From Acidobacteriota bacterium (lineage in GTDB: Bacteria > Acidobacteriota > Blastocatellia > Pyrinomonadales > Pyrinomonadaceae): 64,000 nt of DNA. Made by a program: the position numbers and the translations under genes. The stretch's first letter is position 1. Every line of letters starts with the position of its first letter. Shown here piece after piece: positions 6,656-27,885 of the stretch. Location of the stretch: the NCBI GenBank assembly GCA_032229975.1, contig JAVXVG010000017.1:87557-151556 (forward strand), in the 5' to 3' direction. The notes under the pieces were generated by a model. The model had not been told where the DNA came from. It did not search any database and was given only the letters and a program-made list of their open reading frames with translations.

Positions 6656-6729
6656 GCACCCGTAGCTCAGTTGGATAGAGCATCTGACTTCGAATCAGAG
6701 GGCCGCAGGTTCGAGTCCTGCCGGGTGCA
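6656..6729 (+). tRNA. tRNA-Arg(TCG), canonical-looking
   Basis: Acceptor GCACCCG/CGGGTGC, D-arm GCTCAGTTGGATAGAGC, anticodon loop CTTCGAA, T-arm GCAGGTTCGAGTCCTGC. Confidence 0.9.
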
Positions 6730-6854: not shown

Positions 6855-9800
6855 TCAGCAGGTCTCTTCCGCGAGCGAGCGCACGACGACTCGTTGACCA
6901 CCGATCTCGCCTTCCCACAAAACCGTCGCCGCGCATTCGTGCCTCAAATATTTCCAGAGCGCGCTGCGTTCGTACTCGTCGAGGTCTGCGGGGATGAGAT
7001 CGAAGACGGCGCGCGAGGCGACGACGACGAGCTTGCGTCGCGGTCGCGAGACGGCCACCGTCAAACGACGCGGCTCAAGCAAGAAACCGCTCTCGGCTTG
7101 CGCGAACTCTCGATCTGAGACCGTCGCGGAGACGATGATGAGATCGCGCTCGCCGCCTTGAAAACGCTCGACCGTGTCGATTGATTCGGCGAGTTCCGGC
7201 AGGCGCGTTTGCAGCAGAGACTTCTGCGCGCGGTGCGGCACAACGACGCCGATGCCGCGTCGCGCGTCGAGTCCGAGTTGATGTGTCGCGACGCGCGCGA
7301 TCTCTGTCACGAGTGTCGCCTCGTATTCGTTCGACTGCTGCGACCCCGACTCATCGTGCTCGACGACGACGAGGGCCTGTTCGGGCCTGAAGACCGCCGC
7401 GAGCCACCCCGTCAAACCTTCGGGCGCGTTGAGCCGCAGTCGATTCCCGGAGCGGAAGTTGACGCCGTCTTGCGCATAGACGTGGCGGCGCAGGAAGCCT
7501 GCGATCTCCGTGGGGATGCGAAAAGATTCGTCGAGCGCGTCGCTGCGAAAGCCCGTCTCGCGCAAGGTTTCGAAGATCGAGAGATGTGGGCGCGCGTGTT
7601 TCATGTCGCGCCGGCTCTCCTCGTCCCATGCGTGCGCGAGTATCGGCGGCATCTGTCGATGATCGCCGATGGCGACGAACTGGCCGTCGTCGCGCAAGAA
7701 CGCGGCGGCTGTCAGAGCCTCCGCGATGCCCATCTGCGAAGCTTCATCAACGACGACGAGATCGAAAAACTTCTCCGACCAATCGACCGCGCGACCGCGC
7801 GCCGCGCCCTGCTTGATCAACTTGTAGAGTCCACCCGGCGTGCCGCCGACGACGAGCAAAGGCTCTGAGAGCAGCGCGTCCCACTGCTCAGCCGCGCTCG
7901 ACTCCTCACCACCATCAGCGAATATTTTTTCCACGCCTTCGGTTGCCTGCTCTCCCGCATCCGCGCACACCTTCGCGATCTTCAAAGTCGCGAGCGGCGC
8001 GAGACGCGTGTCGATGTTTGCGCCGTCTTGCGTCGCAGCGTCTCGCAACTCACGCGCGCGGCGTGCGATGCTCGCGAGCGCGATCTGCGTGGCGGCGTGA
8101 GTCCTTGCGCAGACGGCGATGCGGAAAGGACGTGCGGGCGTTGCGAGTGCGAGGGCGCGCACGAGGGCCATGAAGCCGAGCGTGTGGCTCTTGCCCGTGC
8201 CGGGTGGCCCCTGTAGGACGAGGACGCGATCCGCGACCGCTTCGCCGATGACGCGGCGTTGCGCGTCTGTGAGTCCGCGTGGCTGTTGCGTGCGCGATGC
8301 AAGGTCGGCGATCTCTACAGCGTCGCGCAGGCGTCGCGGGCGGATCGGTCGCGGACGCTTCGCTTCTTTCGCGTCGCAGAGCCAGCGATAGAGATTGTTG
8401 GTCGCACTGTTGCGGCAGGCGTCGAGAAACTTGTCGGCGTTGAGATCGTCCGCCATCTCGTCAATAGTGAAGAACGCGCCCGACTCCGGCTTGTGCCGGA
8501 CGTGCGAGAAGCGGAAGTCAGAATTCTTGAACGTCATCGAGAGCAGGCGTAGAGAGAGACGGCCCGCGTCGAACTCTTCGACGATGCCAAGCCGACCGCG
8601 CAACAGTTTCCACGCAGGAAGCGCGCTACCACCTTCACCGGCCAGAGGATTGAGCACGACCCAGTCGCCCGCACGAAACTTCGCGACCGGAGCGTGTGCA
8701 TTCGCACTCATCTCATCGAAGATTTTGCTCGCCGAGTCTTCAGCGTCGTTCGTATTGTGCGCGTCACCAGCGTCGAACGTGAACGTTGCGCGCTCGCCTC
8801 CGGCTGACTTTTCGTAAGCGTCGCAGCGCAGGATGAGCGTGCGGCCCGTTTGCGCGCGCTGTTCGGGCGGGAGCGCGAGATGCAGGAGGAGTGTCTGCAC
8901 CTTCGCATGATGTTCGAGGTAGAGAAAATCTTCTAGCGCGCGACTTAAGGGAACGGACGCGGGATCGATCTCCGTCTCGTCGAGGCGCGAGAGCGTGAGC
9001 GGTCGTTTCTCGACGTGGCGATTCTTCTGCTTGAAACTCTCTTCAATGTGGCGCAGCGCACGGCAGCGCAGCAAGGCGAGCGCGCGCACGTCTTCCATCG
9101 TCACGCCGTTGAAGTTGCTCAGGTAGTTGCGCTCCTGCTCCGTCGGCTCGGCTTCTCCACCCAACCGGCCCCACGCGGCGTAGGCGTATTCGAGCGGAAT
9201 CTCCGTGCCGAAGCGCGCTGACGACTCGACGACGTGCGCGCCGCCTTCTTTGTCGGCGGGCGCAAAGAGTCCGGTCTGCGTGTCGCGCGCGAAGGAACGT
9301 GTGGCATCGAAGACGCGTGCGCGAAACTTCGCAGATGTGTCGTGCGCCGGGTCGTCCCAGCGAAAGCCAAGCTCGCGGGCCACCTCGTAGAGATTCTGGC
9401 AGACGTGCGCGAGGTTCATGCGCTCGCAGACTTCGTCGGCGAGGAAAGAGATCATCGACTGCGTGAGCGCAGGATGCGACGTGAGTAGATCGTAGAACGC
9501 AGGAAGCGCGCATAGCGTCTCGAAGTGGCGCGCGAGCGCGTCGAGCAGCGAGCGTTGACTGCGGCGGTCGAAGAGATAGATGTGAACGGGTGCTTCCCTT
9601 CCGTCAGCCGCGCGCGCGATCTGAGGCAGGAGGCGTGTGATCCATTCGATGAGCAGAGCGCGCTCCGCATCTGTGTCGGGCGGAGAGTCGGTCGATTCTA
9701 TAACTTCAGCCGAGCCGCAGGGGCCCGCGACGAGCGCGGACAGAAGATAGACGCGATCTTCGAGATGATCGCGCTGTGCGTCGATGAAGACTTTAACGAG

Positions 9801-10988
9801 GTTCGGGTAGGTCGCATCGTCGGGCAACGATCCCCACTCGGAGCCGTAGAGGAAGCGTCGCGCTTCGACCGACGTGTCGAAGCGGCGCAGCGCGGCGCGC
9901 GCACGCTGAACGAGCACGGGCAGTCGGCGCGCGAGCACGGGCCGCGCGCCGATCTTTTGCGCGTCCGTCTCACGACCGGGCGCGGTTGTTAAAGTGTGGC
10001 CGGAATAGTTCAACAGGCCCGCGAGTGAGCTGAGCGTCGCGAAGCCTTCGTCGAGGAGCGCGCTCTTTTCATTCGAGGTGAGGGTCGGGACGAGCGAGAG
10101 GTCTTCGCGCTCTGCGGCGCGGACGAAGCAGAGCGAGTTGTAGGGACAGCCGTCGCAATGCGAGCCGAGATGAAACGCAGCCGCGTCGGGCATCACACGT
10201 GCGGCGCGAGAAACGTCCGAGTCATTTGCCGAGACGAGCTGCGCGATCTCGTCGAGATAGAGTGAGAGATCGAACTTGACGAACTCGTCGGGCCCGATCC
10301 GATGCGCGCTCGCACGCGCACCGGGATCGGCTGCCGCGTCGCGCGCCTCCTGACCTTCAATCGACGCACGCCCTTCGCTAGTCTCTTGTTCAATGCGGGT
10401 CGTGTTCGTCTCTTCCGTCTCAGACTTTCGCGAGAGCACCGCGCCATCGATTGATGTCACGTTGAGGCCCGCTTGTCGAACGGCGTCGAGCAACAGACGC
10501 GCGTAGAAGGCCACTTGCAGGCGAAAGCCTACGGTCTCGCGGCGGCTCGCCTTGATATCGAGAACCGTGAGTGAGACATCATTGCCTTCGCGTTCGACTT
10601 GAATAAGATCGGCGTAGCCTTCACACGACCAGCCGCCGATCAAACCTTCGAGTCGTGGTTGATAGTAGAAGCTGCGCCCGTCCTGTTGTTCACCGAGCGC
10701 GACGATAAAGGCCGCAGCGGACGTGCCGCGCAGATCGCGCACGCGCTCACGCGCGCCGAGCGCATCGACGATCTCGCGCTCGAACGACTGGCCCGCGCCG
10801 GAGAGCAAAGGCGAGAGCGCATCGAAGGGGACACGGTAGCGCGCGGCGAGCGACTTCGCCTCTGACGGGAAGAGTACGAAACGCAGATATTGCTCGCAGC
10901 GATTGCGCTGCACGTACTGCGCGAGCCGTTGCGCGCTGAGCGTGCGCTCGGTCTTGAAGCTCTGCGCGGAATCGGAGGCGTGAGTCAT
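6855..10988 (-). CDS. fusion protein: Cas4/Dna2-like Fe-S PD-(D/E)XK nuclease, central RNase-H-like region and Upf1-like SF1B helicase
   Basis: 1377 aa. N-terminus: C31 plus C278-x2-C281-x5-C287, D127, D144-I-K146 and QVAFY. C-terminus: Walker A GPPGTGKSHT (about aa 927), VVVDEASQM, GDHRQMPP, FQGGERDLIIVS and RRLTVAVSRPR. Confidence 0.85.
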   Translation of the reverse strand: MTHASDSAQSFKTERTLSAQRLAQYVQRNRCEQYLRFVLFPSEAKSLAARYRVPFDALSPLLSGAGQSFEREIVDALGARERVRDLRGTSAAAFIVALGEQQDGRSFYYQPRLEGLIGGWSCEGYADLIQVEREGNDVSLTVLDIKASRRETVGFRLQVAFYARLLLDAVRQAGLNVTSIDGAVLSRKSETEETNTTRIEQETSEGRASIEGQEARDAAADPGARASAHRIGPDEFVKFDLSLYLDEIAQLVSANDSDVSRAARVMPDAAAFHLGSHCDGCPYNSLCFVRAAEREDLSLVPTLTSNEKSALLDEGFATLSSLAGLLNYSGHTLTTAPGRETDAQKIGARPVLARRLPVLVQRARAALRRFDTSVEARRFLYGSEWGSLPDDATYPNLVKVFIDAQRDHLEDRVYLLSALVAGPCGSAEVIESTDSPPDTDAERALLIEWITRLLPQIARAADGREAPVHIYLFDRRSQRSLLDALARHFETLCALPAFYDLLTSHPALTQSMISFLADEVCERMNLAHVCQNLYEVARELGFRWDDPAHDTSAKFRARVFDATRSFARDTQTGLFAPADKEGGAHVVESSARFGTEIPLEYAYAAWGRLGGEAEPTEQERNYLSNFNGVTMEDVRALALLRCRALRHIEESFKQKNRHVEKRPLTLSRLDETEIDPASVPLSRALEDFLYLEHHAKVQTLLLHLALPPEQRAQTGRTLILRCDAYEKSAGGERATFTFDAGDAHNTNDAEDSASKIFDEMSANAHAPVAKFRAGDWVVLNPLAGEGGSALPAWKLLRGRLGIVEEFDAGRLSLRLLSMTFKNSDFRFSHVRHKPESGAFFTIDEMADDLNADKFLDACRNSATNNLYRWLCDAKEAKRPRPIRPRRLRDAVEIADLASRTQQPRGLTDAQRRVIGEAVADRVLVLQGPPGTGKSHTLGFMALVRALALATPARPFRIAVCARTHAATQIALASIARRARELRDAATQDGANIDTRLAPLATLKIAKVCADAGEQATEGVEKIFADGGEESSAAEQWDALLSEPLLVVGGTPGGLYKLIKQGAARGRAVDWSEKFFDLVVVDEASQMGIAEALTAAAFLRDDGQFVAIGDHRQMPPILAHAWDEESRRDMKHARPHLSIFETLRETGFRSDALDESFRIPTEIAGFLRRHVYAQDGVNFRSGNRLRLNAPEGLTGWLAAVFRPEQALVVVEHDESGSQQSNEYEATLVTEIARVATHQLGLDARRGIGVVVPHRAQKSLLQTRLPELAESIDTVERFQGGERDLIIVSATVSDREFAQAESGFLLEPRRLTVAVSRPRRKLVVVASRAVFDLIPADLDEYERSALWKYLRHECAATVLWEGEIGGQRVVVRSLAEETC

Positions 10989-12104: not shown

Positions 12105-12484
12105 CCCGCGCGGAAGCTATTGGGCGCGCGCGAAAGATGAAACTACGATGTTGACGAACCAGACAAGACAGAGACGAACGCGCATCGGGGCCGGGACGGC
12201 TTCGATGTATTCGTGCATCTCGCCGGCCCGTGGTGGCGTCGTCGCCGCCGCGCGTGGCGCGATGTGTCTGAGTTCGTTACCTACCTATCAACTCGGTGGC
12301 GAATCCGGACACGATAGCGCGAAATCCATTAGGAATTTGCGTTTCGCGGATCAGGATAACCAGAGTTAGTCGTGGGAGAGCGGGTTCTCCCGCTCTCCAA
12401 TCCAAAAGCTAAAAGTTAGTCGGATTGATCGGAGCGGGAAAGCTTCTCTCGGATGCGAGAAGTGGCCCGCTCTTTTCTTTTGTT
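12105..12484 (+). ncRNA. candidate structured non-coding RNA, unit 1 (unknown class)
   Basis: Lies between the promoter above and a terminator (GAGCGGG 12432-12438 / CCCGCTC 12466-12472, then TTTTCTTT). Internal hairpins: GGGCCGG/CCGGCCC (12188-12194 / 12223-12229) and a 10-bp stem GGAGAGCGGG/CCCGCTCTCC (12375-12398). No credible ORF. Confidence 0.3.
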
Positions 12485-12509
12485 GTTTGACAACTGAATT
12501 TTTTGAATG

Positions 12510-12652
12510 GAAGAGAGCAGAGAGACTGCCTTCTGCGGGCGACGACGATCCTGCCGGACTCTGGCAAGCACGCGCGGACCAGCGTCGCCCTTAGGAGAAG
12601 TGTGCGCCGAAGTGTGTCTCCACGCGCGCTCTCTCGGCCCTCTTCTTTTTTT
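12510..12652 (+). ncRNA. candidate structured small RNA, unit 2 (unknown class)
   Basis: A long-range closing helix (12510-12524 with 12631-12645, 13 of 15 positions paired) is followed directly by T7. Nested helices: GGGCGAC/GTCGCCC (12537-12543 / 12584-12590) and GGAGA/TCTCC (12594-12598 / 12617-12621). Confidence 0.3.
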
Positions 12653-12667
12653 ATCATAGCAAATTTC

Positions 12668-12754
12668 GCAGACGTGGCTGAGCGGCAAAGGCGGCTGACT
12701 GTAAATCAGTTTGTCACTTAGGTGACTTCGGAGGTTCGAGTCCTCTCGTCTGCA
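12668..12754 (+). tRNA. tRNA-Tyr(GTA), class II
   Basis: Acceptor GCAGACG/CGTCTGC, anticodon loop CTGTAAA, long variable arm GTCAC-TTAG-GTGAC, T-arm GGAGGTTCGAGTCCTCT. Confidence 0.85.
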
Positions 12755-12877
12755 TCGAGACATTTGAGGGGCCTGATGTAACAGCAGCACATCGATCTCC
12801 AAGATCGTCGCTGAAGGGATCGAGCCTCGCGTGCTCCTATCGAATTTTATATCGACGCGTCGAAGCGTCGTTTGCGC

Positions 12878-12961
12878 GGAAGGTTCGGCACGTGGCAAGC
12901 CAAGCGGTCTTGAAAATCGTGAGAGGTAACGCTCTGGCGGGTTCGACTCCCGCACCTTCCT
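12878..12961 (+). tRNA. tRNA-Ser(TGA)-like, class II, divergent
   Basis: Acceptor GGAAGGT/ACCTTCC, 3-bp D-stem GGC/GCC, anticodon loop CTTGAAA on a weak stem with two G-U pairs, variable arm AGAG/CTCT, T-arm GCGGGTTCGACTCCCGC. The discriminator is T rather than G. Confidence 0.6.
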
Positions 12962-12965
12962 TATT

Positions 12966-13017
12966 CCGACTGCTGCGCTACTTCATCGTTCATCGTTCCG
13001 CCTTCATCGTTTCATTC
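12966..13017. repeat. Hairpin repeat family B (GATGAAC/GATGAAG-type), right half only
   Basis: CGACTGC...CTACTTCATCGTTCATCGTTCCGCCTTCATCGTTT matches the loop and right arm of the copies at 15871 and 17615. The left arm is absent, and the element abuts the 3' end of tRNA-Ser. Confidence 0.6.
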
Positions 13018-13092
13018 GAACCCGTAGCTCAGTGGATCAAGAGCGCGACTCTGCGAAGGTCGAGGTCGCAGGTTCGAGTCCTGCCGGGTTCA
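13018..13092 (+). tRNA. tRNA-Arg(GCG)
   Basis: Acceptor GAACCCG/CGGGTTC, D-arm GCTCAGTGGATCAAGAGC, anticodon loop CTGCGAA, T-arm GCAGGTTCGAGTCCTGC. Confidence 0.85.
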
Positions 13093-13099
13093 TCCGCAC

Positions 13100-13170
13100 G
13101 CCGACGTAGCCCAACGGTAGAGGGCCGCGCTGTGCACGCGGAAGCTGGGGGTTCGACTCCCTTTGATCCA
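13100..13170 (+). tRNA. tRNA-His(GTG)-like, probably a pseudo-tRNA
   Basis: The anticodon arm is perfect (CCGCG-CTGTGCA-CGCGG) and the T-arm is GGGGGTTCGACTCCCTT. The 5' GCCGACG has no complementary 3' strand (TGATCCA), and the D-stem/position-26 region is one nucleotide short. Confidence 0.4.
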
Positions 13171-13199
13171 TCTCGCTCACACGACATCAAACTTTTCTT

Positions 13200-13271
13200 G
13201 GAACGGTGGCTGAGAGGTCAGGCACTGGATTGTCGATCCAGACGATGCGAGTTCGAGCCTCGTCCGTTCCG
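13200..13271 (+). tRNA. tRNA-Asp(GTC) with a class-II-type D-arm
   Basis: Acceptor GGAACGG/CCGTTCC, discriminator G, D-arm GCTGAGAGGTCAGGC, anticodon loop TTGTCGA, 5-nt variable loop, T-arm GCGAGTTCGAGCCTCGT. Confidence 0.8.
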
Positions 13272-13281
13272 TCATGCACGC

Positions 13282-13355
13282 GCCTTCGTAGCTCAAACGC
13301 GCAGAGCGGCTGGCCCTTAACCAGTCAGGTCTGAGTTCAAATCTCAGCGAAGGCA
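13282..13355 (+). tRNA. tRNA-Lys(CTT), non-canonical (C33, no GG in the D-loop)
   Basis: Acceptor GCCTTCG/CGAAGGC, D-loop AAACGCGCA, anticodon arm GCTGG-CCCTTAA-CCAGT, T-arm CTGAGTTCAAATCTCAG. Confidence 0.75.
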
Positions 13356-13366
13356 TTTCCCGTTTC

Positions 13367-13440
13367 GACGGAGTGTAGCCTAGAGGCTTCGAGTCGCTTG
13401 ATCCGAGATCAAGACGGCGTGGATTCCTCTCGACTCCGAT
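13367..13440 (+). other. tRNA-sized structured spacer occupying a tRNA slot (not foldable as a canonical tRNA)
   Basis: Acceptor-like pairing CGGAGT/ACTCCG (13369-13374 / 13433-13438). TA at positions 8-9. Perfect palindrome CTTGATC-CGA-GATCAAG (13397-13413). No T-loop. Confidence 0.3.
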
Positions 13441-13452
13441 CACTTCACATTC

Positions 13453-13530
13453 GCATCGTTGGTCCAGCCCGGTTGAAGACGCGGCGTTGCCAGCGCCGAG
13501 ACCTGAGTTCGAATCTCAGACGATGCACCA
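13453..13530 (+). tRNA. tRNA-Gly(GCC) with a class-II-type D-arm and encoded CCA
   Basis: Acceptor GCATCGT/ACGATGC, D-region GTCCAGCCCGGTTGAAGAC, anticodon arm CGGCG-TTGCCAG-CGCCG, T-arm CTGAGTTCGAATCTCAG, then A-CCA (13527-13530). Confidence 0.8.
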
Positions 13531-13540
13531 ACACACACGC

Positions 13541-13616
13541 GGGCGGTTAGCTCAAAACTGGATAGAGCACCACGCTTCGAACGTGGACGTTGCGGGTTCG
13601 AGTCCTGCACCGCCCT
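13541..13616 (+). tRNA. tRNA-Arg(TCG), second divergent copy
   Basis: Acceptor GGGCGGT/ACCGCCC, D-arm GCTCAAAACTGGATAGAGC, anticodon arm CCACG-CTTCGAA-CGTGG, T-arm GCGGGTTCGAGTCCTGC. Confidence 0.85.
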
Positions 13617-13628
13617 CTCATTCTTCGC

Positions 13629-13703
13629 GCGACCGAAACTCAAACGGATACGAGTGCGAGTTTCCCAAACTCGATGCTGCGGGTTCGAGTCCCGCCGGTC
13701 GCT
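13629..13703 (+). tRNA. tRNA-Gly(CCC)
   Basis: Acceptor GCGACCG/CGGTCGC, discriminator T, anticodon arm CGAGT-TTCCCAA-ACTCG, T-arm GCGGGTTCGAGTCCCGC. Confidence 0.85.
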
Positions 13704-13715
13704 TCTCACCTTCAT

Positions 13716-13788
13716 GCACGCGTAGCCAAGCGGCGAAGGCGCAGGTCTGCAAAACCTGTCAACGTCGGTTCGAATCCGACCGCGTGCT
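13716..13788 (+). tRNA. tRNA-Cys(GCA)
   Basis: Acceptor GCACGCG/CGCGTGC, discriminator T, anticodon arm CAGGT-CTGCAAA-ACCTG, T-arm GTCGGTTCGAATCCGAC. Confidence 0.85.
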
Positions 13789-13944
13789 TCTTCGGCGACG
13801 AACGCGAAGATTCATTCTTCAACGTCGTCGCGCGTACAAGGCTTGCGAGCGGCGGCGCACCCCGCGTCGAGCCTCACCACCGCTCGCACTTCCCTTCTCA
13901 TTCAAGACGGAAGGCAACACTGACGAAAGGAGGTTTTACGAACC

Positions 13945-14514
13945 ATGTCGCTCAACGGTCGGGTTCTCTTGCTCAACCAAACTTACGAGCCGCTCGGCAC
14001 GGTCGGCGTGGCCCGCGCGATTGTAATGCTCTTCAAGAACACCGTCTCGGTCGAAGAGTGGGACGGCGACCGCGTCCTTCGCACGCCGCGCACAGAGTAT
14101 CCCGTGCCCTCTGTCATGCGCCGGCGCACCTACGTCAACGTGCGCCGACGCCGCGATGCGACGGGCTCGAAGCGCGTGAGAATTTACATACGCGACGGGT
14201 TTCGCTGCCAGTATTGCGGCGAGCGCAAGAACCCTGTGGAGCTAACGCTCGATCACATTCTCCCGCGCTCGCGCGGCGGCAACCATCAACCGATCAACGT
14301 CGTCACCGCGTGCGTCGCCTGCAACCAGCGCAAGGGCAATCGCACGCCCGGGGAGGCCCGTATGCCTCTGCTCACCACGCAGATGGCCCTGCACGCGCAG
14401 CTCGAACGCGTCGTGCTCTGCCACTACGCCGAGGCGCGGCCGGAGTGGAGAAAGTACATCTTCACTGAAGACGTGAACGACGATTCGCGTGCGAAGCGAT
14501 CACGGACGGCTTGA
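13945..14514 (+). CDS. HNH endonuclease (COG1403-type) embedded in the tRNA array
   Basis: 189 aa. Strong RBS AAAGGAGG 8 nt upstream. Motifs CQYCG...LTLDHILPRSRGGNH...VTACVACNQRKGNRTP (HNH with two CxxC pairs). Confidence 0.85.
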   Translation: MSLNGRVLLLNQTYEPLGTVGVARAIVMLFKNTVSVEEWDGDRVLRTPRTEYPVPSVMRRRTYVNVRRRRDATGSKRVRIYIRDGFRCQYCGERKNPVELTLDHILPRSRGGNHQPINVVTACVACNQRKGNRTPGEARMPLLTTQMALHAQLERVVLCHYAEARPEWRKYIFTEDVNDDSRAKRSRTA

Positions 14515-14544
14515 ATGAGGGCCGGCGGCCGTCGGCCCTCATTC
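14513..14544 (+). other. GC-rich stem-loop at the HNH stop codon (no U-tract)
   Basis: GAATGAGGGCCG / CGGCCCTCATTC, a 12-bp stem with an 8-nt loop. tRNA-Val follows 13 nt later. Confidence 0.45.
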
Positions 14545-14556
14545 ATCCCTCAAACC

Positions 14557-14629
14557 CGCCGGTTAACTCAACTGGAAGAGTGCCTGTCCTACAAACAGGA
14601 AGTTGAAGGTTCAAATCCTTCACCGGCGA
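14557..14629 (+). tRNA. tRNA-Val(TAC), C33 variant
   Basis: Acceptor CGCCGGT/ACCGGCG, D-arm ACTCAACTGGAAGAGT, anticodon arm CCTGT-CCTACAA-ACAGG, T-arm GAAGGTTCAAATCCTTC. Confidence 0.8.
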
Positions 14630-14640
14630 TCAACTTTATC

Positions 14641-14725
14641 GGGGCGCACGGCTCGTCGCGCGCAGAACGGCAGACTGCGCGTGATCGTGGAGCGAGAGAC
14701 TTGCTGGCGTTGGTCTCGCGCCCCG
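14641..14725 (+). ncRNA. tRNA-like structured element (acceptor-like stem, no T-loop or anticodon loop)
   Basis: 7-bp stem GGGGCGC/GCGCCCC (14641-14647 / 14718-14724). GCTC...GAGC helix encloses a 9-bp hairpin CGCGCGCAG-AACGGCAGA-CTGCGCGTG. The 3' hairpin GAGAC-(12 nt)-GTCTC abuts the acceptor strand. Confidence 0.35.
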
Positions 14726-14738
14726 ACCAAAGCTCTCG

Positions 14739-14812
14739 CGCGGAGTAGCTCAGTTAGGCAGAGCACACGTCTCATAAATGTGAGCGCGCGGGTTCGAGTC
14801 CCGCCTCCGCGA
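14739..14812 (+). tRNA. tRNA-Met(CAT), elongator type or possibly Ile2
   Basis: Acceptor CGCGGAG/CTCCGCG with 1-72 paired. The anticodon stem CACGT/ATGTG lacks the initiator GGG/CCC pairs. Loop CTCATAA, T-arm GCGGGTTCGAGTCCCGC. Confidence 0.85.
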
Positions 14813-14815
14813 TTC

Positions 14816-14890
14816 GGGTCGGTAGCTTAACTCGGCAAAAGCGACAGTCCTGCAAACTGTTAGATGTGAGTTCGAATCTCACCCGATCCA
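14816..14890 (+). tRNA. tRNA-Ala(TGC), C33 variant
   Basis: Acceptor GGGTCGG/CCGATCC contains the G3:U70 Ala identity pair. Anticodon arm ACAGT-CCTGCAA-ACTGT, T-arm GTGAGTTCGAATCTCAC. Confidence 0.85.
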
Positions 14891-27063: not shown

Positions 27064-27885
27064 TCATCCCTTGCGGCGTGCAGAAGGGTGCTCCGAGATC
27101 GCCTGTCCCTTCGTGCACCTTCCGGTTTCAAGATTTACCGCGCCGATGTAGATAGGCTCATCGTCGCCCTCGTCTCCCTCATTCTCTACTGCATCCATCC
27201 GCGACTGTCCGGGCGGGCCCCCGGAACGACTCTTCTTAGCTCGCTCTCTGCGCTCTCGCTCCGCACGCTCCGCCCATTCTTTGCGTCGCAGCTTTGGCAT
27301 CGAGGTAGCAATGAAGACCAGCGCCGTCTGCCCGTCTGCGCCGTCTGCCTGCAACACGACCGCCCCGTTCGCGTATGCGCCGATGCACGATCTCATGATC
27401 CGCTTGGCTCGCCACTTCGAGATGACATGGAGTACATCATGCGCCGAGTGCAGCGTCGCGCGCGCCGAGTGCGTATCGACGCGGCCTCCTTTCTCATCGG
27501 TATAGAAGCCGAGCGAGTCGATGACGACCGCGCTGTACTCTCCGATGGAGAAATGCCAGAGTATGCGCCGGTCGTTTGCGGAGTTGACGACGTGGCTGAG
27601 CCTGAAGTGTGCGTCGAAGTATGACTCGGAAAAACCCGCCGCGATGATCGCCGCGCGCGAACCTTGCGCCATCCTCGATTCTTCGTCGGTGAGTTTCATA
27701 TTGATGGGCGCGCTCACAGCTTCTTGCGCCAGCCCCTTCGCAGGCTTTGCCCCGGACTCGCGCCGGCGCGAAGTCTGCCGAACCTGTGCGCGCGCAAGCG
27801 TAAGATAGCCGGACGCGGCGAAGGCGAGAACAACGATGACGACAAGAGAAAGCGAAACGAAGACTGAATATATTTTTTTGTCCAT
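27064..27885 (-). CDS. membrane-anchored hypothetical protein
   Basis: 273 aa with an N-terminal TM helix (VFVSLSLVVIVVLAFAASGYL) and a charged C-terminal tail. I recognise no family. Confidence 0.55.
   Translation of the reverse strand: MDKKIYSVFVSLSLVVIVVLAFAASGYLTLARAQVRQTSRRRESGAKPAKGLAQEAVSAPINMKLTDEESRMAQGSRAAIIAAGFSESYFDAHFRLSHVVNSANDRRILWHFSIGEYSAVVIDSLGFYTDEKGGRVDTHSARATLHSAHDVLHVISKWRAKRIMRSCIGAYANGAVVLQADGADGQTALVFIATSMPKLRRKEWAERAERERRERAKKSRSGGPPGQSRMDAVENEGDEGDDEPIYIGAVNLETGRCTKGQAISEHPSARRKG

Follow-up and report, generated by a model that had tools for sequence, protein, structure and literature searches.

A tRNA gene array with an embedded HNH nuclease gene in a Pyrinomonadaceae genome is probably a reduced, inherited L-array operon

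A 64-kb stretch of the genome of an Acidobacteriota bacterium of the family Pyrinomonadaceae (GCA_032229975.1, contig JAVXVG010000017.1, positions 87,557 to 151,556 of the forward strand; hereafter the window, with positions counted from its first letter) carries a dense array of tRNA genes at 12668-14890, into which a gene for an HNH nuclease is embedded. Our comparative analysis indicates that this region is probably a reduced copy of a chromosomally inherited L-array operon that is widespread in Pyrinomonadaceae and would provide a stress-induced spare set of tRNAs. L-arrays were defined by Santamaria-Gomez et al. (2021; PMC8421152), in whose survey Acidobacteria appeared without them. The L-array of Anabaena (PCC 7120, plasmid delta) is silent and is induced by ribosome-targeting antibiotics, with 23 of its 26 tRNAs charged, and under translational stress it shares its regulation with the adjacent HNH gene, all8564, and with rtcB (PMC8421152).

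ARAGORN called 14 tRNA genes in the window, 12 of them on the + strand at 12668-14890 with the anticodons Tyr-GTA, Ser-TGA, Arg-GCG, Asp-GTC, Lys-CTT, Gly-GCC, Arg-TCG, Gly-CCC, Cys-GCA, Val-TAC, Met-CAT and Ala-TGC; the remaining 61.8 kb hold two only (6656-6729, which is an Arg-TCG, and 967-1042). Eleven of the 12 pass the Rfam tRNA model at 54-68 bits, and the two non-array tRNAs score above them, at 71.8 and 75.4 bits. An independent Logan assembly (L001; related loci are denoted by L and a number) carries the same HNH gene with the same seven flanking tRNAs, so the array is not an assembly artefact; it is real and far beyond chance. It comprises 12 genes, three pseudogenes and one tRNA-like RNA in 2.2 kb, all on the same strand and co-transcribable, and, as in L-arrays, its anticodon order has no repeating unit. 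The features of the region are as follows.

12432-12486, + strand: GC-rich hairpin GAGCGGG...CCCGCTC with a T-run, 5' edge of the module (alignment A3; inverted and direct repeats)
12487-12492, + strand: TTGACA/TTGATA box, candidate -35 element (alignment A3)
12509-12652, + strand: R1, a structured RNA of about 150 nt (covariance model, 101.6 bits)
12668-12754, + strand: tRNA-Tyr-GTA, long variable arm, A73 (ARAGORN; Rfam 55.8 bits)
12767-12838, + strand: decayed tRNA-Trp-CCA pseudogene (local alignment to the Trp-CCA of L010)
12878-12961, + strand: marginal tRNA-Ser-TGA, U73, weak variable arm (ARAGORN)
13018-13092, + strand: tRNA-Arg-GCG (ARAGORN; Rfam 67.7 bits)
13100-13170, + strand: chimeric pseudogene, 5' part of a Leu-TAG fused to a His-GTG body
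13199-13273, + strand: tRNA-Asp-GTC (ARAGORN; Rfam 55.7 bits)
13282-13355, + strand: tRNA-Lys-CTT, C33 for U33 (ARAGORN, Rfam)
13369-13439, + strand: tRNA-Pro-TGG pseudogene, mutated anticodon loop and 5-nt deletion in the T arm
13453-13530, + strand: tRNA-Gly-GCC, the sole array tRNA with an encoded CCA (ARAGORN, Rfam)
13541-13617, + strand: tRNA-Arg-TCG, array copy, duplicate of 6656-6729 (ARAGORN, Rfam)
13629-13703, + strand: tRNA-Gly-CCC, where most relatives have TCC (ARAGORN, Rfam)
13716-13788, + strand: tRNA-Cys-GCA, U73, final gene ahead of the HNH gene as in most relatives
13945-14514, + strand: HNH nuclease gene, 189 aa, All8564 type (Pfam HNH_5, 9e-17)
14513-14544, + strand: perfect 12-bp hairpin overlapping the HNH stop codon, no T-run (read from the sequence)
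14557-14629, + strand: tRNA-Val-TAC, C33 (ARAGORN, Rfam)
14640-14729, + strand: R2, a conserved tRNA-like RNA in the 109-nt stretch between Val and Met
14739-14812, + strand: tRNA-Met-CAT, C1-G72, no initiator features (ARAGORN, Rfam)
14816-14890, + strand: tRNA-Ala-TGC, G3:U70, A73, C33, terminal gene of the array

The original prediction of this array, made from the sequence alone, had listed at least 12 tRNA genes with an HNH gene embedded among them, and both the ARAGORN calls, which are exactly the 12 listed above, and the Pfam match of the open reading frame (ORF) at 13945-14514 bear this out. A thirteenth member, described there as a His-GTG-like gene, is the chimeric pseudogene at 13100-13170. 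The proposed spacing of about 3-40 nt is not uniform, five spacers measuring 56-123 nt; the long spacers hold the three pseudogenes (Trp, the Leu/His chimera and Pro) and R2. Only Gly-GCC was said to encode CCA, which is true among the array tRNAs (R2 being the only other case in the window) but is no peculiarity of the array, because the two non-array tRNAs at 6656-6729 and 967-1042 also have no encoded CCA and its absence is thus the norm for the window genome. In several slots the orthologous array tRNAs of relatives mostly encode a 3' CCA (arrays of L028-L085 versus the window clade), and the CCA-encoding Val-TAC and Lys-CTT genes, the two slots shown in full, come mainly from a clade whose arrays contain RtcB. 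Arg-GCG, found in 46 loci, stands in place of the usual bacterial Arg-ACG, and viral arrays also have Arg-GCG. An origin of the Met-CAT gene by an anticodon switch from Thr-CGT was considered and rejected, the first Met-CAT of L010 being the orthologue of the window gene.

When species-representative genomes were scanned, at least 544 homologous stretches were recovered, of which the best 80 loci were examined. All 80 come from Pyrinomonadaceae, Blastocatellia or Acidobacteriota metagenome-assembled genomes, including two complete chromosomes (OY970256.1 and OY970193.1), and in 70 of them the HNH homologue lies within a tRNA array of up to 36 genes: 25 or more tRNA genes surround it in 27 loci, 10-24 in 29, 1-9 in 14 and none in 10. 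The order of the genes is conserved on one strand. It starts with Tyr, Trp, Ser, Ser, Arg-GCG, Gln, Arg, four Leu, Glu and His, runs through Glu, Asp, Lys-CTT, Pro, Gly-GCC, Arg-TCG, Gly-TCC, (Thr) and Cys up to the HNH gene, continues after it with Phe, Val-TAC, Thr-CGT, Arg-TCT, Met, Ala, Thr and Met, and ends with Asn, Lys-TTT, Ile, Val-GAC, 'Ile-TAT' and Gln. Full versions cover all 20 amino acids. The slot of the HNH gene is equally constant, with Cys-GCA the last tRNA gene on its 5' side in 56 of 73 loci and Phe-GAA the first on its 3' side in 54 of 74. The window array is colinear with the arrays of L006-L011 at 70-88% DNA identity and is a shorter version of the same order that retains R1, nine upstream tRNA genes, the HNH gene, R2 and three downstream tRNA genes; on the 3' side of its Ala-TGC the distal tRNAs of the relatives, Ro60 and its Y RNA are missing.

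Some further properties of the relatives' arrays were seen along the way. The array Leu tRNAs with the anticodons TAG, CAA and TAA are of class-I size, measuring 73-80 nt and lacking the long variable arm, and Leu-GAG alone is long-armed (L002 8660-9011; L055; L073; L112 4326-4862), with class-I-sized Leu also in the Anabaena L-array. A tRNA of 92-96 nt (anticodon TAT), whose variable region forms an extra hairpin, lies near the 3' end of the array, shortly 5' of Ro60 where that gene is present (L002 12002-12096; L055 11978-12070; L073 12554-12649). Near-perfect long palindromic hairpins occupy spacers of L073 (10908-11007, 5938-6004 and 14578-14681), where microRNA models match both strands.

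The HNH gene is preceded by a strong Shine-Dalgarno sequence, AAAGGAGG at 13926-13933. Its catalytic DH...N...N residues and two zinc-binding CxxC pairs are intact, and alignment A7 shows invariant residues that it shares with the All8564 type. BLASTP against Anabaena All8564 gave 38% identity over 146 aa (E 2e-27), a match that covers both the N-terminal domain and the HNH core; searches of PDB, NCBIfam and PADLOC returned matches at the level of the HNH domain only (Cas9, IscB, PtuB), and the AlphaFold model of the N-terminal domain, with a confidence score (pLDDT) of 59.7, was too poor for structural comparison. An identical protein occurs in an Acidobacteriota metagenome-assembled genome, and hundreds of homologues at 70-90% identity mostly bear the name Pyrinomonadaceae. 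Against 20 relatives, at synonymous divergence (dS) of 0.44-2.7, the ratio of nonsynonymous to synonymous divergence (dN/dS) is 0.09-0.28, and the gene is under purifying selection. The sporadic presence, decay and mobility with its flanks that mark a selfish homing endonuclease were not found; the gene sits in one fixed slot in nearly all loci, at this low dN/dS, and its retention after the loss of all tRNAs argues for a host or module function over selfish homing.

About 250 nt on the 5' side of the first tRNA gene are conserved even among loci with different flanks (alignment A3). The hairpin at 12432-12486 at the outer edge is probably an insulating terminator. No -10 element matching the candidate -35 box at 12487-12492 was found, and a scan of the array for sigma-70 promoters and terminators gave nothing over background. 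R1 follows, closed by a helix of 12-15 bp and then a U-run in a terminator-like arrangement, with a core that contains the tandem repeat GAAGTGTG-N4-GAAGTGTG. The covariance model placed R1 in 55 of the 60 loci with enough upstream DNA, tRNA-less loci included, always once per locus and on the strand of the module, and had no match in viral contigs or in Anabaena; Rfam likewise gave no match to R1. Across 59 distinct sequences, the paired fraction of cells is 93.4% and compensatory changes are seen in 21 of 30 pairs, whereas none of 500 shuffles reached the observed value and slid controls pair at 37-65%, which points to purifying selection on R1. In a metagenome scan for the core, 120 contigs were recovered, 112 of them with at least 250 nt downstream, and R1 is followed by array tRNAs in 100 of these and by orf122/RtcB in six. 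Structure, U-run and position would suit an attenuator or riboswitch-like element, an alternative fold was noticed by eye, and R1 is a candidate operon leader that would probably act as an attenuator.

Other identities for R1 were considered and set aside. It is not the Y RNA partner of Ro60, since the genuine YrlA-like RNAs are found on the 3' side of Ro60, many loci have R1 but no Ro60, and the GNCGAAG-like string of R1 is not conserved. Nor is it a dispersed regulon element, its core being found in metagenomes almost solely at the head of the module. With the Anabaena-type promoter repeats TGTWNWWNWNN(N)WGTANYNWA the tandem GAAGTGTG shares a similar 12-nt period, and the likeness goes no further than the layout. 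A near-copy of the core repeat GAAGTGTGCGCCGAAGTGTG, matching at 18 of 20 bases including the spacer, lies at 27604-27623 (+ strand) within the ORF at 27064-27885 (- strand), where it encodes SYFDAHFR, and is probably a coincidence.

R2 is marked by an invariant 7-bp acceptor-like helix, CGGGGCG/CGCCCCG, followed by a discriminator base and an encoded CCA in all 43 aligned loci. Inside the helix lie two hairpins, one long and bulged and the other short, and the inner arms covary. R2 occurs once per locus, mostly directly after Val-TAC; the window copy folds at -52.7 kcal/mol (z -3.2) and is 85% identical to that of L006, compared with 46-69% for short spacers. It has no cloverleaf and was called by neither ARAGORN nor Rfam, and it was not found in viral contigs. 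Runs of short repeats of the TTAGC/GCTGTTAGC type flank R2 in L010 (4212-4330), L011 (10793-10915) and L007 (10925-11010).

Fuller copies of the module also carry RNA-repair partners. In about 39 loci the array includes RtcB (Pfam 9.9e-122), placed between Lys-CTT and Pro-TGG, and in tRNA-less loci with R1 it fills the space between R1 and the HNH gene. Ro60 (TROVE and vWA domains; NCBIfam Rsr) follows the array in 28 loci, and just downstream of it stand candidates for YrlA-like Y RNAs with E values down to 4e-13, slightly missing the Rfam gathering score of 69 (L073 14934-15061, 66.6 bits; L010 7667-7808, 65.7 bits, and 7295-7393, 36.1 bits; L002 14291-14423, 44.2 bits). The combination of Rsr, Y RNA and RtcB known from RNA-repair operons is present in relatives and absent from the window, where searches for all three came back empty. 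What the module can do without is its tRNAs: R1 and the HNH gene outlast them, and RtcB or Ro60 persist in many of the same loci. Two further ORFs without a match in Pfam, NCBIfam or PADLOC recur in these modules: one of 263 aa between Cys-GCA and the HNH gene in 11-12 loci (L084 8853-9644; L006, the closest relative, ~1355-2150), which is absent from the window, and one of 122-138 aa just upstream of RtcB (L068 8176-8544).

In its fuller form the module runs from the candidate leader R1 through about 20 tRNA genes (rtcB among them in one clade), the HNH gene in its slot between Cys-GCA and Phe-GAA, and about 13 tRNA genes plus R2, to Ro60 and the YrlA-like Y RNAs. We propose that the array tRNAs are a supernumerary set normally kept off, with the terminator-like R1 standing ahead of the first gene. 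Upon damage to translation or to the tRNA pool the operon would be transcribed as one unit, its transcript cut by RNase P and RNase Z and CCA added to yield replacement tRNAs, while in relatives RtcB and Ro60/Y RNA would repair or clear damaged RNA. The homology, gene order, synteny, erosion, redundancy of Arg-TCG and purifying selection are results of the comparison; the inducible expression and the roles of R1 and the HNH gene are inferred. Several points weigh against this proposal: the promoter scan found no full sigma-70 site for the array; R1 could be an independent small RNA and not a leader; long vertical retention is unlike the picture of L-arrays driven by horizontal gene transfer; within the window genome, for which the 64-kb window was covered, duplication is seen for Arg-TCG only; and the window copy, being without RtcB, Ro60 and Y RNA, may in part or as a whole be functionally dead.

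A bolder version, which we regard as rather unlikely taken as a whole, makes the module a self-contained operon for rescue of the tRNA pool. R1 would then be a new riboregulator that detects damage to translation or to tRNAs and in response lets the spare tRNAs, RtcB, Ro60 and Y RNA be transcribed; R2 would serve as a decoy or sensor that resembles a tRNA and is processed as one; the HNH protein would act in the RNA-damage response, possibly on RNA, and not as a homing endonuclease; C33 would confer nuclease resistance; and the window would be the minimal surviving version, with R1, tRNAs, HNH and R2. As regards C33, three window tRNAs (Lys-CTT, Val-TAC and Ala-TGC) have it at a position where U33 is otherwise near-universal. 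Across the arrays of L002-L085 it is found in Val-TAC (33/51), Ala-TGC (25/49), Pro-TGG (29/52), Ile-GAT (29/40), Ser-CGA (12/19) and Val-GAC (7/7), and its share is 12.8% of array tRNAs versus 5.2% in viral arrays and 0/24 in Anabaena; the C33 tRNAs may resist nucleases that cut the anticodon loop. The earlier suggestion that the array could replace tRNAs cleaved by anticodon nucleases fits the RtcB and Ro60/Y RNA genes in or beside the relatives' arrays, but escape through altered anticodon loops is unsupported where it can be tested, because each of the four array tRNAs that can be compared with a non-array gene has the same anticodon loop as that gene.

Erosion of the window copy is evident, and it raises the alternative, unlikely in our estimation, that the array is a functionally dead relic of a once functional ancestral module in which only the HNH gene (perhaps with R1 and R2) still matters, the remaining genes drifting since Ro60, Y RNA and two thirds of the tRNAs were lost. 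The chimera at 13100-13170 matches the 5' end of Leu-TAG at 24 of 24 nt and its body aligns with the His of L006, a fusion that explains why its Rfam match, at 26.7 bits against a cut-off of 29, is confined to model positions 6-65 with the acceptor stem unmatched. It is the scar of a deletion that removed the Leu-GAG, Leu-TAA, Leu-CAA and Glu-TTC genes standing between Leu-TAG and His in fuller arrays; Gln, the next gene after Arg-GCG in those arrays, is also missing from the window. Deletions between adjacent tRNA genes together with point decay have stripped the array of its other genes. The Trp-CCA pseudogene at 12767-12838 was called by neither ARAGORN nor Rfam. Ser-TGA falls below the Rfam tRNA threshold, its sole match being to tRNA-Sec at 36.9 bits (cut-off 47), and its U73 stands where 31 of 41 orthologues have G; Gly-CCC deviates from the consensus of its slot at 12 conserved positions, U8 among them; and the C33 of Lys-CTT is private to the window genome (1 of 53 orthologues). 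These three pseudogenes, the weak Ser, the deviant Gly-CCC and the private U33C of Lys-CTT are signs of relaxed constraint specific to the window genome, and it is because of them and of the lost RtcB, Ro60 and Y RNA that the copy may be dead, all the more as other lineages went on to lose every tRNA.

The surviving genes, however, do not look like drifting sequence. Between the window and L006, where the dS of the HNH gene is 0.55, the tRNA genes are 92% identical (intact genes 88-100%) compared with 46-69% for short spacers. Arg-GCG, Gly-GCC, Cys and Val have no deviation at conserved positions, Arg-TCG and Ala differ by one or two extra D-loop bases only, and R1 retains its 101.6 bits. Among orthologues, compensatory changes affect 10 of 20 stem pairs in Val-TAC and 17 of 20 in Lys-CTT, with almost no broken pairs, so the tRNA folds are kept by selection, and the discriminators follow bacterial identity rules (Cys U73 in 65/65, Val A73 in 51/51, Lys A73 in 52/53, Asp G73 in 52/55). 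The surviving array tRNA genes thus appear to be still under constraint and not junk.

A recently acquired island of tRNA genes borne by a phage, plasmid or integrative and conjugative element and mobilised by its HNH homing endonuclease, in line with the original prediction's view of such arrays as horizontally mobile, is very unlikely. In its favour, 12 viral contigs of IMG/VR have relatives of the HNH protein (30-49% identity) in or beside same-strand arrays of 9-30 tRNAs, an RtcB-like gene being present in three of these contigs, the Anabaena homologue is plasmid-borne, the module lies between different genes in other clades, and L-arrays are reported to spread by horizontal gene transfer (PMC8421152). 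Against it, the ordinary chromosomal genes that flank the array in the window, on the 5' side a helicase-nuclease (PD-(D/E)XK-SF1 helicase) and a 232-aa ORF and on the 3' side HhH-GPD, endonuclease III, pseudouridine glycosidase (PsuG) and BNR/sortilin-like genes, recur at the same insertion site in about 17 loci; flank and HNH protein identities fall together (88/88% for L006, 73-77/74-79% for L013-L027), and trees are congruent so far. No integrase or phage genes were found among the neighbouring window genes, the GC content of the array is only mildly below that of its flanks, and similarity to phage or plasmid DNA is limited to single-tRNA matches of 70-86%, on which a phage or plasmid origin by DNA similarity was rejected. 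Purifying selection, moreover, acts on the HNH gene, which persists even in loci that have lost every tRNA. Because of the shared flanks, the parallel divergence, the lack of phage or plasmid similarity and the low dN/dS, the module appears to have been inherited vertically for long in the window sub-clade, and the patchy distribution and horizontal spread described for L-arrays were not seen within the sampled Pyrinomonadaceae, in which it is widespread, with synteny in the sub-clade. Since contexts differ between clades and viral relatives exist, the comparison suggests older relocations or transfers between clades. Of the properties first ascribed to the array, its accessory nature is upheld by the duplicated Arg-TCG, the lower scores, the pseudogenes, the coverage of only 11 amino acids and the losses in relatives, the suggested function is plausible, and recent horizontal mobility is not supported.

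Two observations concern the surroundings of the module. The conserved upstream flank in the syntenic clade, a 1377-aa PD-(D/E)XK nuclease and SF1 helicase at 6855-10988 (- strand), has domain-level PADLOC matches to DpdJ and MkoA and weak NCBIfam matches to anti-phage helicases, far below the family cut-offs. In one context of the module Ro60 is followed, at a distance of about 2 kb, by a HicA/HicB toxin-antitoxin pair (L003 15667-16078).

The duplication of at least one isoacceptor had been foreseen and is confirmed by the canonical Arg-TCG at 6656-6729, about 6 kb from the array, which is 65% identical to the array copy and scores 75.4 bits in Rfam against its 59.5. Across one and the same set of genomes, conservation is 88-93% for the canonical gene and 80-82% for its array counterpart, and relatives have non-array Lys-CTT, Ser-TGA and Gly-CCC (and Arg-TCG) genes beside arrays bearing the same anticodons. 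The window array has no genes for nine amino acids, whose tRNAs must be encoded elsewhere. The array is dispensable, as follows from the canonical Arg-TCG, the faster divergence of the array copies, the non-array copies in relatives, the nine amino acids left uncovered and the existence of tRNA-less lineages. By the terms of the original prediction, array genes that were sole genomic copies with normal scores, at a locus syntenic across the family, would make this a housekeeping operon; synteny holds within the sub-clade but not across the family, and, given the better-scoring second Arg-TCG, the loss of the array in relatives and the pseudogenes, the genes do not appear to be sole or main copies, nor are they normal in score. 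That the operon supplies the normal tRNAs of the cell is accordingly most improbable: sub-clade synteny, conserved folds and identity elements and the span of all 20 amino acids in full versions would suit it, but the canonical Arg-TCG, the nine missing amino acids, the ten related loci with an HNH gene and no tRNAs and 14 with fewer than ten, the faster divergence, the pseudogenes and the unusual C33, Arg-GCG and, in relatives, class-I Leu speak against it.

The preferred reading, a reduced copy of an inherited L-array operon, can be set against known systems. With the Anabaena L-array the module shares a dense, same-strand, non-periodic array that covers all amino acids in its full form and undergoes frequent insertions and deletions, tRNAs that are probably supernumerary to dispersed genes (here seen for Arg-TCG in the window and four anticodons in relatives), a linked HNH gene of the same family with similarity extending into the N-terminal domain, an association with rtcB and class-I-sized tRNA-Leu. 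It differs in that the HNH gene occupies a fixed internal slot here and an upstream position there, the gene orders are unrelated, the module is chromosomal, syntenic and apparently vertical across many species instead of patchy, R1 replaces the promoter direct repeats as the conserved upstream element, R2, Ro60 and Y RNA are present, and C33 is frequent. Phage tRNA clusters can also contain embedded homing endonucleases, as with segB of T4 and the tRNA region of T5, and cluster C1 mycobacteriophages have about 33 tRNAs together with Ro60 and Y RNA. As in such clusters, nuclease genes interrupt arrays here, viral contigs have HNH relatives in arrays, some with RtcB-like genes, and the Val and Glu tRNAs of viruses have cases of C33 as well; unlike such clusters, the module has a stable chromosomal site without phage genes, shares no gene order with them, has an HNH protein only 30-49% identical to the viral ones, and contains R1 and R2, neither of which was found in the viral contigs. 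Mycobacteriophages combine tRNA arrays, Ro60 and YrlA-like RNAs (PMC4201824, PMC10264068), and extra phage tRNAs can counter tRNA-targeting defences (PMC10264068, PMC11555353). Like the Salmonella rsr-yrlBA-rtcBA operon (Chen et al., 2014; PMC4201824), the relatives encode Ro60, YrlA-like Y RNAs and RtcB on one strand. Unlike in that operon, the repair genes are interleaved with about 30 tRNA genes and the HNH gene, no RtcA or RtcR was seen, and Ro60, Y RNA and RtcB are all absent from the window.

To our knowledge, L-arrays are known from few phyla and have been seen as cryptic, horizontally spreading cargo, and only that of Anabaena has been studied functionally. The present comparison indicates that an L-array can be passed on vertically and be kept in many species of abundant soil Acidobacteria, that tRNAs, an All8564-type HNH gene, RtcB, and Ro60 with its Y RNAs can form one physical module, and that this module has conserved and previously undescribed RNAs of its own, the terminator-like leader R1 and the CCA-ending tRNA-like R2. 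The window copy is an eroded variant of the L-array, and the main interest lies in the wider family, to which the RNA-repair partners and the two new RNAs belong. Its decay states, from 36 tRNAs down to none, form a natural series for asking what maintains such arrays, and the module would offer handles on how bacteria control and use spare sets of tRNAs in translational stress or under tRNA-targeting attack.

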